DNA of 64,000 nt, from the UHGV virus genome UHGV-0036853; one strand, given 5' to 3'. Source of the DNA: a virus. Position numbers: made by a program. This document shows positions 45,001-48,000 of the stretch, piece by piece (within the stretch, counting starts at the first letter, position 1; every line of letters begins with the position of its first letter).

Positions 45001-48000
45001 GTTTACGAGAATTGGCTCTCCATCATCGTTATAGCGTACATAAGCGTCGTCCCCTCGTTCTGCAACAGGGATGTTTTTACCTGAAAGGAGAGCGACTACT
45101 CGTTTTACACTGTCACGGAAGTCCTGAACCTCTTTGATGGAACGTTTTTTAGACATGTCTAATCCTTTGTTATGAAAACAAATTGTTTACTAGTGTGTTT
45201 AATGTAGCACTGCGCGAACAGGGAACTAAGCCATTCGCGCAGGGAGAAGAGGGGTTAACAGATTCTGACGGCTAAAGACCCGGAGCCGGTATTGAGAAGC
45301 GTGAAGCGTTTGTTGTTAAGTTCGAATATAAAGCCAGTTGTGTCATTCACACCAACCTGAATCTGCTCATTCGGTAGATCGGTGAGGATGTCAGCTACAC
45401 ACTCATCAGCTAATTTCTGTACGTGTCCGATCTCAAGAGCGATTAGGCTGGAAATAGTGGTTTTCATTCAATCAATCCATTCTAACTTATACTATGGTAA
45501 GGAATACTACTAAAATTTGTATCAATACTGAATACATCCATATCAGATGCAAGTTAATTTTCTTACCTATTTTGGGCTAGTTTTTCTCCATGCATGGACC
45601 TTTACTCGGTCTTACAAGTGCCTGCCGAAAAAAATGATAATAGCTTTACAACCCTAACCTTTGATGTAATATCGGTAAGCACTTACCAGAGAGAATTAAA
45701 CGCGCAAAGGTTGTAACAATGTCTGACAACAAGATTGAATTTATAGAAAGTCGCTATGCTGCTTTTATCGCAGGGCTGATTGAATCCTCACCTATGAGTC
45801 AGGCCCAAATAGCCAGACTTATTGGTTATAAAAATGCCAACAACCTTTCTTTAATTAAAAGTGGCAAAATTCCTTTGCCTATCGATAAGGTTCGTCCGTT
45901 GGCGCTGGCGCTGGGTATTGAGCCAAGTCGTCTTATGATGATGGTGCTGGAAGAACGCCAACCTGAACTCGCAGCATTTTTATACAAAGAAGGCACCGCT
46001 CCTCTTAACGAGGACGAAAAACAGGTTCTTGCTGCATATAACGAGCGATTCGGTAAAGAGAAAGGCGCATCACAAAAGGTTGTTGAGGCCATAAAGTCTC
46101 TATGAAAAATTTACACGAATAAGCTCTGTTGATAGACGATCTCCCTTGAATTTGTGGTCAATTTCGTCTAAATCCGGTTGCTCTACGATTGATGCGATGT
46201 ACGTCGAGAAACTTTCTAAGGCGTCTCGCATCTCGTCCATATAATCGTGCCGGTCGTAGACCCGATCTATCCCCTCAAGACTGTGGTTCATGATTTTGCG
46301 TGATACCTCCTGGCTTATGCCTAATGCTGGGAAGTAACTACGCGCAGTACGGCGCAAATCTCGGGGTGTAAATGGCTCAAGCTCCATCAGTTCTGGTCTT
46401 TCCAGAATACGACGTAATGCCTGGGCTATTGCCACTTTGGACATAGGAAGGTCTTTCCCGATTTTTTTATTCGAAGGCACGAGCCACTGGCTGTCTTTAC
46501 CGTATTCGAACAACTCTTCAATGCATGTGCGCATTAATGTGCTTAAAGGCAGCGAATGCTCACGTGCTGACTTGTTTCTCTTGCCTTGATTCCAAACCCC
46601 ACGCTTAAGATTGAACTCACTTTTTTTAGCCCGCAGTACTTCGTCAGGTCGTCTTGCTGATACAAGACACAGCCTGGCCGCCCATTTTGTACCAGCGCAC
46701 ACATTGAAGTAGTCCCATATATTCCAGAACACCCATACCTCTGCGTCGGTCAGCTTCCGCTCGCGAGGTGTGGGCTTTGCGCCACCGGCAACTTTGTTTA
46801 GTGACATATCGTTTAACGGTGACACGTCTATCATCCCCTGGAAGGCGCACCAGCTAAGGAACTGCTTCATCAGAGAGAAAACGCGGCGGCCCATAACAAT
46901 TTTGCCATCCAGTATTAGTGGGTTGACCAGTTGGTTCACCATGAACCTATTAATGTCACTTACTTTTACATCGGCAATGTGCGGCAAAACATGTATCAAA
47001 ATACAATGAACAGCGATCTCTGGCCGACGTCTGGTTATCAGCAGAGATAAGCGAGTGAATAACATGAATGCGTCCGAGAATCTCATATCATTGCTAACCT
47101 GCGAGATCATAACGGCCTGCATTTGAGATGCTCTTTCGAGATACTCAATCGCCTCTTTTGAGGTGTTCTCCGCAGCGCGTGCTCTGTCAAAGCTATTTTT
47201 CATATGACAATCACCGAGTTACGCCGATTCACTGTATAAGTAAACAGTATATTAGGCATAGATTCTTATAGGATCAAGAGTAAAAGTAACTCATTTTCAC
47301 TAATGATTCCATACATAGTAGGTATGGAATCATTTAGACGTTGTTTTTTGAATTTTAAGGGAAACAGGAGTGAGTTTGGTGGGAATAAAAAAACGGCTCC
47401 TGTGAGCCGTTAAAATCAGAGGGTGCTGACGTATGCAGCCAGTTCTGTGTATCCGCCAATCGGCTGGCCATCGATCAGCACCTGGGGGATAGTCTCTACC
47501 GGTTTACCAACAATTTCACTTAGTTTTTCCTTGTCGATACCGGCAGTGGTGATGTCGATGTACTCATAATCACCGTAGCCATGTCCCTTTAGTTGCTTCG
47601 CCAGCTCGACTGCACGTTTGCAGTATGAGCAGTTATCTCGTCCGTAGATAGTGATCGTCATAACCTAACAAATACCTTTATAAATATTGATTCGAACATA
47701 TCAGACTATACTACAAACAGATTTTTTTGATAAGTATGTAGTAACTTATTGATTGACTGGTAAACAATTGAAGTGATTATGACAATAGATTACAGTAAGG
47801 ATTGCCTTGAAATGTACATTTTATAGAGGTTTTAATGATTGGTAAGTTGTCTGATTCTTTGATTGAAAATAAATACAACGAATTTAGAGAAGAAATATCT
47901 TTACTTTTTGACTATTTAAATCAGATAAATGATACAACAAAGAAAAATATAAAACGTCTTCTAAAAGAAGTGGAGTATGCACAGAATCCAGATACTATTA

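Follow-up and report, generated by a model that had tools for sequence, protein, structure and literature searches.

In this study, we analysed a 64,000-nucleotide (nt) stretch of the virus genome UHGV-0036853, hereafter the window, with the focus on a palindrome that lies beside a tyrosine recombinase gene. The window derives from an SSU5-related Escherichia coli phage-plasmid of ~110 kb and is 98–99% identical to pECOH89, phage Cyrano and many plasmids. The recombinase gene (int; 46100..47203, minus strand; 367 amino acids, aa) has its ATG at 47203, and 99 nt separate that codon from the palindrome AATGATTCCATAC-ATAGTAG-GTATGGAATCATT (47302-47334), which was read from the sequence as two perfect 13-nt arms around an asymmetric 7-nt spacer. 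The inner, int-proximal arm AATGATTCCATAC (47302..47314, plus strand) is a candidate binding element for one recombinase protomer, the spacer ATAGTAG (47315..47321, plus strand; CTACTAT when read towards int) is the proposed region of strand exchange, and the outer arm (47322..47334) is AATGATTCCATAC on the minus strand. The neighbours of the palindrome are the start of the recombinase gene on one side and, on the other, the terminator that belongs to a glutaredoxin gene (47416..47661, minus strand). A first-pass annotation of the window had pointed to lox-like geometry near the recombinase start, and that description was borne out by the perfect 13-7-13 arrangement. On the two strands of the window together there are five exact copies of the 13-mer, where base composition would predict ~0.003. 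Perfect inverted repeats of at least 13 nt with a spacer of up to 10 nt were found in two places only in the 64 kb, the palindrome included, and in none of 20 Markov-randomised windows. The other such repeat (17482-17517), AAAAACCTACTTTAAATT-GAA-TTTAAAGTAGGTTTT, is a perfect hairpin of AT-rich sequence and, with the run of T residues behind it, resembles an intrinsic terminator.

The recombinase has a Pfam match to the catalytic domain PF00589 and a weak match to PF22022, the central domain of phage integrases. No match to the arm-binding domain PF13356 was found in the recombinase subfamily, whereas that domain is present in relatives of 24–34% identity; a two-domain, "simple" recombinase of this kind fits a simple site. 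Residues R185, K211, R284, H307 and Y316, assigned by their distances from one another and by predicted secondary structure, are conserved at lambda Int spacing and are near-invariant across the family, whose members are 43–100% identical to the window protein. The AlphaFold2 model (predicted local distance difference test score, pLDDT, of 87) has a helical N-terminus, and its best structural match is lambda Int 75-356 bound to core DNA (Foldseek E of 8e-7), followed by Tn1549 Int, XerA, XerH and IntI, with SroF also among the matches and Cre lower (E of ~0.04–0.1). A sequence search of the PDB with the family profile gave no matches. The recombinase is not a Cre homologue, and from its conserved catalytic residues and modelled core-binding and catalytic fold it looks active.

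Approximately 240 related loci were looked at overall, those from IMG/VR having been collected through the recombinase protein alone and the species-level loci (n = 65) via the family profile. The palindrome was found ~130 nt upstream of the recombinase in 69 of 71 IMG/VR loci, the two loci without it being one whose recombinase gene is N-terminally (5') truncated and an outlier of 27% identity. It was also present in 63 of the 65 loci of different species, with perfect arms of 11–13 nt in 58 of those 63, and one or two arm mismatches were seen in a few distant loci; the IMG/VR loci with a complete gene all have perfect arms. Overall, no complete homologue of the recombinase, down to 45% identity, lacked such a palindrome immediately upstream. 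When the search was reversed, a recombinase start was found beside the palindrome in 106 of 112 IMG/VR palindrome-bearing stretches; five of the remaining six are cut at the stretch end and one, L209 (L numbers designate individual related loci), has an apparent group II intron insertion. At 13113-13400 of L209 the palindrome and int promoter are followed by a group II intron-like sequence beginning GTGCGCC, with no recombinase open reading frame (ORF) within the next 1 kb.

On a rival view the palindrome is the operator of another factor and has nothing to do with recombination. There are two candidates for that factor: the convergent XRE regulator (45719..46105), whose gene overlaps the int 3' end in all phage-plasmid relatives, and the 71-aa protein encoded at 51139..51354, whose gene is present, where the region is covered, in loci bearing the dispersed half-sites described below and has no match elsewhere. 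Dimeric helix-turn-helix proteins do bind palindromes. However, the XRE regulator and all other tested phage-plasmid genes are absent from most distant loci, which are on Pantoea, Rahnella and Erwinia plasmids, many of them with lengths of hundreds of kb, and therefore the recombinase is the sole consistent partner of the palindrome. In tblastn searches, ~55 loci that have no XRE or 71-aa match still have the recombinase and a covarying palindrome, and the 20-bp centre-to-centre spacing of the 13-bp arms is unusual for such repressors. An operator of another factor is thus highly improbable, and, as judged from these comparisons, the palindrome very probably belongs with the adjacent recombinase as its cognate target.

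The first-pass annotation had proposed comparing related elements for co-variation of site and recombinase, and this comparison revealed that the arms switch symmetrically between recombinase clades, with no other gene consistently linked. Across the 69 IMG/VR loci and throughout the E. coli/Klebsiella/Yersinia clade the arms do not vary, but the spacer changes from lineage to lineage. Arms of the form TGATTCCATAC-N7-GTATGGAATCA accompany recombinases that share 56% identity or more with the window protein. Recombinases of 45–53% identity, from Pantoea, Rahnella, Erwinia, Xenorhabdus, Morganella and Ewingella hosts, are accompanied by TGACTCCAGAC-N7-GTCTGGAGTCA, a change of two substitutions that are mirrored in both arms with the spacing unchanged. 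The outermost arm position is also symmetric in its variation (A/T, T/A or G/C). Spacer length is constant at 7 bp, and at least 14 spacer sequence variants exist, in both orientations relative to the gene, with the reverse-complement pairs CTATTAA/TTAATAG, TCTATAG/CTATAGA and TTATATA/TATATAA among them. Fixed arms and a free spacer would be expected if the protein reads the arms and the spacer need only match that of the partner site.

A total of 250 palindrome copies were identified in 248 of 5,426 complete E. coli genomes, all on plasmids and none chromosomal. Two complete genomes and 114 viral stretches each have a single palindrome, one per replicon, and in every locus with a complete gene it is intact and never a hybrid junction. 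The module is also carried by non-phage plasmids, some of hundreds of kb. These results bear on the possibility that the palindrome is the core of an attP for chromosomal integration, a role suggested by the membership of the protein in the phage integrase family, its annotation as an integrase, and a site adjoining the gene as attP often does. Neither the absence of chromosomal copies nor that of hybrid junctions fits such a role. In addition, there is no arm-binding domain, there are no arm-type repeats near the core (the nearby repeats being core-arm sequence), and the perfectly symmetric arms are unlike typical attP/attB cores. We consider an attP function very unlikely, and the earlier suggestion of a lox-type dimer-resolution or cyclisation site, rather than a chromosomal att, is supported by the linkage to the recombinase, the symmetric arm change, the intact single copy and the plasmid-only carriage.

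SSU5 was isolated as a phage and has been described as virulent (PMC5427195). This phage (L146) is the sole relative found without the module: recombinase, XRE regulator, palindrome and variable region are all missing, and CobT abuts tRNA-Asn (18696-18932). The module is present in the plasmid closest to it (99.3% identical), and no intact copy of the SSU5 deletion junction was found among 822 related plasmids. These observations are indirect evidence for a plasmid role of the module. A 70-aa "putative Cre-associated protein" is encoded near the RepB gene in SSU5 (L146 2639-2851) and in pJN2-26 (L261 5337-5549), both elements without Cre.

Several known systems resemble the one described here in part. 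Cre/loxP of the phage-plasmid P1, which has roles in multimer resolution and circularisation, an 8-bp spacer and no dispersed half-sites at loxP, shares with it perfect 13-bp inverted arms, a short asymmetric spacer, a single recombinase without an arm-binding domain, a site near the gene and a plasmid prophage. However, the spacer here is 7 bp, there is no detectable sequence relationship, and Cre ranks below lambda Int, Tn1549 Int and Xer in fold searches. XerS/difSL of streptococci and XerH/difH of Helicobacter and Campylobacter also combine one recombinase with a ~30-bp inverted-repeat site beside its own gene, for the resolution of replicon dimers, and XerH is among the structural matches, but those systems are chromosomal and FtsK-controlled with imperfect, unequal arms, whereas ours is plasmid-borne with perfect arms. 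In ResD/rfsF of F and Rsd/crs of the Salmonella virulence plasmid, both of which resolve plasmid multimers, a plasmid-encoded tyrosine recombinase acts at a site just upstream of its gene on a large low-copy plasmid, as would be the case here, and crs consists of an inverted repeat with core-adjacent direct repeats; their sequences are unrelated to ours as far as tested, and the half-sites here lie 0.7–6 kb off and within genes. Extra arm-motif copies in direct orientation relative to the nearest core arm are a feature of Tn4430 TnpI/IRS (DR1 and DR2), the third FRT element and the integron attI repeats. Those copies lie within ~100 bp of the core in one nucleoprotein complex, whereas the copies here are kilobases away, on both sides, in coding sequence and extended by ATC. 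In structure, the core-binding and catalytic domains are closest to those of lambda-type integrases, which have the same catalytic spacing, but PF13356 is missing here, no arm-type sites and no integrated copies were found, and the core is perfectly symmetric. On its sequence features the system falls in the known class of single-recombinase, inverted-repeat sites and departs from a lambda-type attP. No description of the palindrome or of the role of the recombinase was found in the searchable literature.

Taken together, we consider it likely that the 33-bp palindrome is the target of the recombinase, in a Cre/loxP- or XerS/difSL-like system for plasmid multimer resolution. A recombinase protomer would bind each 13-bp arm and strand exchange would occur across the 7-bp spacer. 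The geometry is that of loxP or FRT, and the placing of the site beside its gene that of XerS/difSL. Because each replicon has one intact site, only identical site copies could recombine productively. By analogy with Cre/loxP, XerS/difSL and ResD/rfsF, the outcomes would be the conversion of plasmid multimers to monomers, possibly the circularisation of terminally redundant phage DNA after infection, and the occasional fusion of related plasmids.

In addition to the palindrome, the window has dispersed half-sites whose consensus is TGATTCCATAC followed by ATC. The exact half-site AATGATTCCATACATC is present within dnaE (38018..41536, minus strand) at 41271..41286 on the plus strand, antisense to codons G-C-M-E-S-L; at 50116..50131 on the minus strand, 192 nt upstream of a tRNA-Asn/Tyr/Thr array; and at 51128..51143 on the minus strand, where it overlaps the stop codon of 51139..51354 and the ATG of 50990..51142. 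A degenerate copy, TGATTCCAAAC (46587..46597, plus strand), lies within int over codons V-W-N-Q and is perfect (TGATTCCATACATC) in Klebsiella-type and L075-type relatives. The first-pass annotation had listed two of these copies, and the coordinates of one (50116-50132) were correct; the other had been placed at 51126-51142 and the actual position of GATGTATGGAATCATTT is 51128-51144, and the third exact copy, in dnaE, had been missed. The half-sites are 0.7–6 kb from the palindrome and every copy points towards it, although these positions are syntenic and hence not independent of one another. They are limited to the SSU5-like clade, including one lineage with a 56%-identical recombinase, and neither the distant clade nor the non-phage contexts have one at a distance of up to 8 kb from the palindrome. 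Elsewhere in the complete pECOH89 genome the motif was not found, even allowing two mismatches, and the same was true of a ~75%-identical Klebsiella relative.

Comparison of distinct flank variants revealed that the half-sites are conserved beyond their surroundings at the small-ORF start (28 variants; motif 99%, flanks 77%), upstream of the tRNA array (24 variants; 100% and 66%), in dnaE (27 variants; 100% and 81%) and in int (25 variants; 95% and 80%). This conservation extends to synonymous codon positions in two different frames, and the half-sites are under nucleotide-level selection. The int copy is weaker evidence than the others because an invariant W-x-Q-G peptide partly accounts for its sequence, and co-variation of this copy in the distant clade was rejected, the 7–10 matches out of 11 there being largely due to the same peptide. 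SSU5 has one substitution in its tRNA-upstream half-site (TGATTCCGTAC), which is anecdotal, and the phage is uninformative on half-site survival without the recombinase because its deletion is too recent, as indicated by the 99.3% identity of the closest plasmid. Directly beside the dnaE half-site of L035 (~6953) is a 9-bp in-frame tandem duplication (atctcatac atctcatag). The acidic repeats of the CobT-like gene contain a palindrome with 12-nt arms, TGATGATTCAGA-ATTA-TCTGAATCATCA (44269-44296), and in Klebsiella- and Yersinia-type relatives (L078 11080 and L145 9256) a one-mismatch half-site, TGATTCCATGC, that faces the recombinase-associated palindrome; these features may be due to chance in a repetitive coding region.

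Several explanations of the half-sites were rejected. As weak full sites they would need a partner arm, and a partial one (7/13) exists only at the E. coli tRNA-upstream copy and is not kept in Klebsiella. They are not promoters, since there are no sigma-70-like sites at them and the orientation of the dnaE copy is inconsistent with local gene direction, and they are not cassette or mosaic boundaries, the homology breakpoints being elsewhere. Comparison by eye with the consensuses for Ter, dif and sigma-54 gave no match. Placement of a replication origin or terminus from GC skew was also rejected, as the skew tracks gene orientation only.

The half-sites had originally been noted to coincide with the starts of two short ORFs beginning MIPYI. 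One of these, 50990..51142, is a conserved gene for a 50-aa membrane protein; the other proved to be an internal ATG of a non-conserved ORF, which in Klebsiella relatives reads MIPYIQ and then stops. The conserved gene has a paralogue at 51338..51517 without the motif. The two membrane proteins (51338-51517 and 50990-51142, minus strand; 59 and 50 aa) have common GFLIG...YR(I/V)V motifs and flank the 71-aa protein, which is annotated elsewhere as a putative transcriptional regulator, and only the second starts in a half-site. That the motif contains an ATG and begins the 50-aa gene at 51142 lends some substance to the idea, held open by the first-pass annotation, that it is only a shared promoter or leader, or an N-terminal coding segment (MIPYI), of small ORFs. 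This idea is practically excluded: one copy is antisense in dnaE and another lies in int, the ORF at the tRNA-upstream copy is not conserved, the paralogue has no motif, the ORF started by the palindrome runs into a terminator and varies with the flank, and the palindrome is present in clades without those ORFs.

Another explanation, for the half-sites only, is that they work as RNA, for example through an RNA derived from the tRNA leader that pairs with the dnaE and int mRNAs. The local genes all run in one direction, and consequently the copies on one side of the palindrome are transcribed as UGAUUCCAUACAUC and those of int and dnaE as the exact complement, GAUGUAUGGAAUCA, so that the common direction of the copies towards the palindrome and their split into sense and antisense copies on its two sides are a single observation. 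The complementarity spans 14–16 nt and includes the ATC/GAT extension. In addition, one copy lies within the structured leader of the tRNA array, a non-coding stretch (49925-50700, minus strand) of ~700 nt upstream of the array, of which the 406 nt tested (49925-50330) fold with a z of -4.6. However, pairing would leave the identity of the motif with the recombinase arm unexplained, there are no compensatory changes among variant copies, no promoter or terminator bounds a small RNA, and Rfam has no family for the tRNA leader or the half-sites, matching the tRNAs only. A role as RNA is therefore improbable. Long inverted repeats based on CACAACGTTGAGG also occur in the leader region (50191-50210/50293-50312), and a related pair lies at 48843-48862/48901-48920. 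A further pair of repeats, of 26 nt, is at 50384-50409/50447-50472. The leader stretch is conserved in SSU5.

The palindrome also appears to overlap a promoter. A -10-like TACTTT (47283..47288, minus strand) lies exactly 15 nt downstream of the inner 11-mer arm, and 109 of 137 distinct site contexts, drawn from all clades, have TAnnnT at precisely this offset, which places the inner arm at the -35 position of a putative promoter aimed at int. This promoter is a consensus match at which a simple scanner made no call. A second promoter-like element for int, TTGATC-17 nt-TAATAT (47249..47277, minus strand), is conserved in the E. coli and Klebsiella inner flanks and scores under the 9-of-12 threshold of the scanner. 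With the inner arm at the -35 position of this putative promoter, occupancy of the site would probably also adjust recombinase expression, and such autoregulation is plausible from these sequence patterns.

The same overlap is consistent with the recombinase being mainly or only a DNA-binding regulator, with the palindrome as its operator and the half-sites as further operators. Precedents are MrpR of SPbeta and SroF of phi3T, repressors with a recombinase fold whose repeated target element is dispersed over the phage genome. MrpR can no longer recombine and acts through the element SPBRE (PMC10516654). The family described here resembles MrpR/SPBRE, and SroF of phi3T, in having a recombinase fold, a temperate phage setting and a motif that recurs in the genome, and the nucleotide-level conservation of the dispersed half-sites, the structural match to SroF and the replacement of the first catalytic His by Arg are all in keeping with regulation. 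Unlike MrpR, however, the recombinase keeps its catalytic residues, and a near-invariant set of Arg, Lys, Arg, His and Tyr is not what one would expect of a domesticated binder. The 13-7-13 geometry with a free, flipping spacer suits strand exchange, most family members have a single palindrome only and no half-sites, on non-phage plasmids of up to hundreds of kb, and the half-sites, several of them in coding sequence, have no recognisable promoters. We thus regard a recombinase that serves mainly or only as a regulator as unlikely.

Dispersed, coding-embedded half-sites of this type fit no known system. They are real features of the sequence, and because they share the arm sequence, binding by single recombinase protomers, which may serve regulation, looping or titration, is favoured as the most economical explanation over RNA pairing or a different binding protein. 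Under a target function for the palindrome, the half-sites would be a later addition in the SSU5-like phage-plasmid clade. It is conceivable, and we offer this only tentatively, that in this clade a still-catalytic recombinase has a second job, in which protomers on the half-sites regulate or organise the replication-gene region. The half-sites to be bound, in dnaE, in int, at the start of the small membrane-protein gene and in the tRNA-array leader, all face the proposed resolution site.

Outside the outer arm is an A/T-rich, semi-conserved flank, tagacgttgttttttgaattttaaggg (47335..47362; strand not assigned), and a weakly conserved AGAWTYH motif was found 23–24 nt outside the outer arm in 49 of the 137 distinct contexts, in both clades; this flank may be an accessory or bending element. 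Homology between the window and seven relatives or lineages begins or stops at 47334-47336, the outer end of the palindrome, and across 81 loci 24 sequence classes were distinguished for the outer flank against 10 for the inner. Among the cargo next to the site are a YafO toxin module, PhoH and the caf1 capsule operon, the last of these in Yersinia pestis pMT1. In pMT1 of strain CO92 (L145 290-6081), caf1R, caf1M, caf1A and caf1 lie directly outside the palindrome (6049-6081), and this F1 capsule operon fills the variable slot that in other relatives contains modules of glutaredoxin, PhoH or YafO. In the gap separating the palindrome from the glutaredoxin gene, L001 (7336-8480) has a YafO-family toxin with a partner gene, Cyrano (L003 8179-8733) a 555-nt hypothetical gene, and an Enterobacter relative (L262 4504-8738) Gp49/PhoH modules. 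No second site is carried by the inserted cassettes beside the palindrome.

A number of points weigh against the reading of the palindrome as a resolution site and of the half-sites as recombinase arms. Nearly all family members have Arg (R281) in place of the first catalytic His. A perfect palindrome can homogenise its own arms, so that symmetric changes could arise partly by self-correction and not through selection by the protein; the switch between clades is therefore stronger evidence than arm symmetry by itself. A single site per replicon leaves no natural recombination products to inspect, and the site is ~20 kb from the plasmid replication gene and does not adjoin the ParA-/ParB-like genes. 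The homology boundary at the outer end of the palindrome and the 24 classes of outer flank are explained as well by a constrained site beside a permissive intergenic gap as by recombinase-mediated exchange. With regard to the half-sites, the ATC extension is constant in them and never found beside the palindrome arms, which also counts towards a role as RNA, and to our knowledge a lone recombinase arm at kilobase distances is no known functional unit.

The proposed function has implications for a gene annotated as an "integrase" on hundreds of clinically relevant plasmids, including E. coli, Klebsiella and Enterobacter phage-plasmids with extended-spectrum beta-lactamase (ESBL) genes, pMT1 of Y. 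pestis, and large plasmids of Pantoea and Rahnella. The region just outside its site is a hotspot for accessory genes, such as toxin-antitoxin modules, PhoH and the F1 capsule operon of pMT1. The two natural specificity classes TGATTCCATAC and TGACTCCAGAC, together with the many spacer variants, are possible compact, single-protein recombination tools orthogonal to Cre and Flp. If the half-sites bind the recombinase, they would represent an unusual case of a recombinase motif under selection within essential coding sequence, and a recombinase with a second job, if there is one, would occupy a place between lox-type recombinases and the recombinase-fold repressors that SPbeta-like phages have domesticated. 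For the plasmids that carry this gene, the proposed function and target argue for a plasmid-maintenance system and not an integration module.

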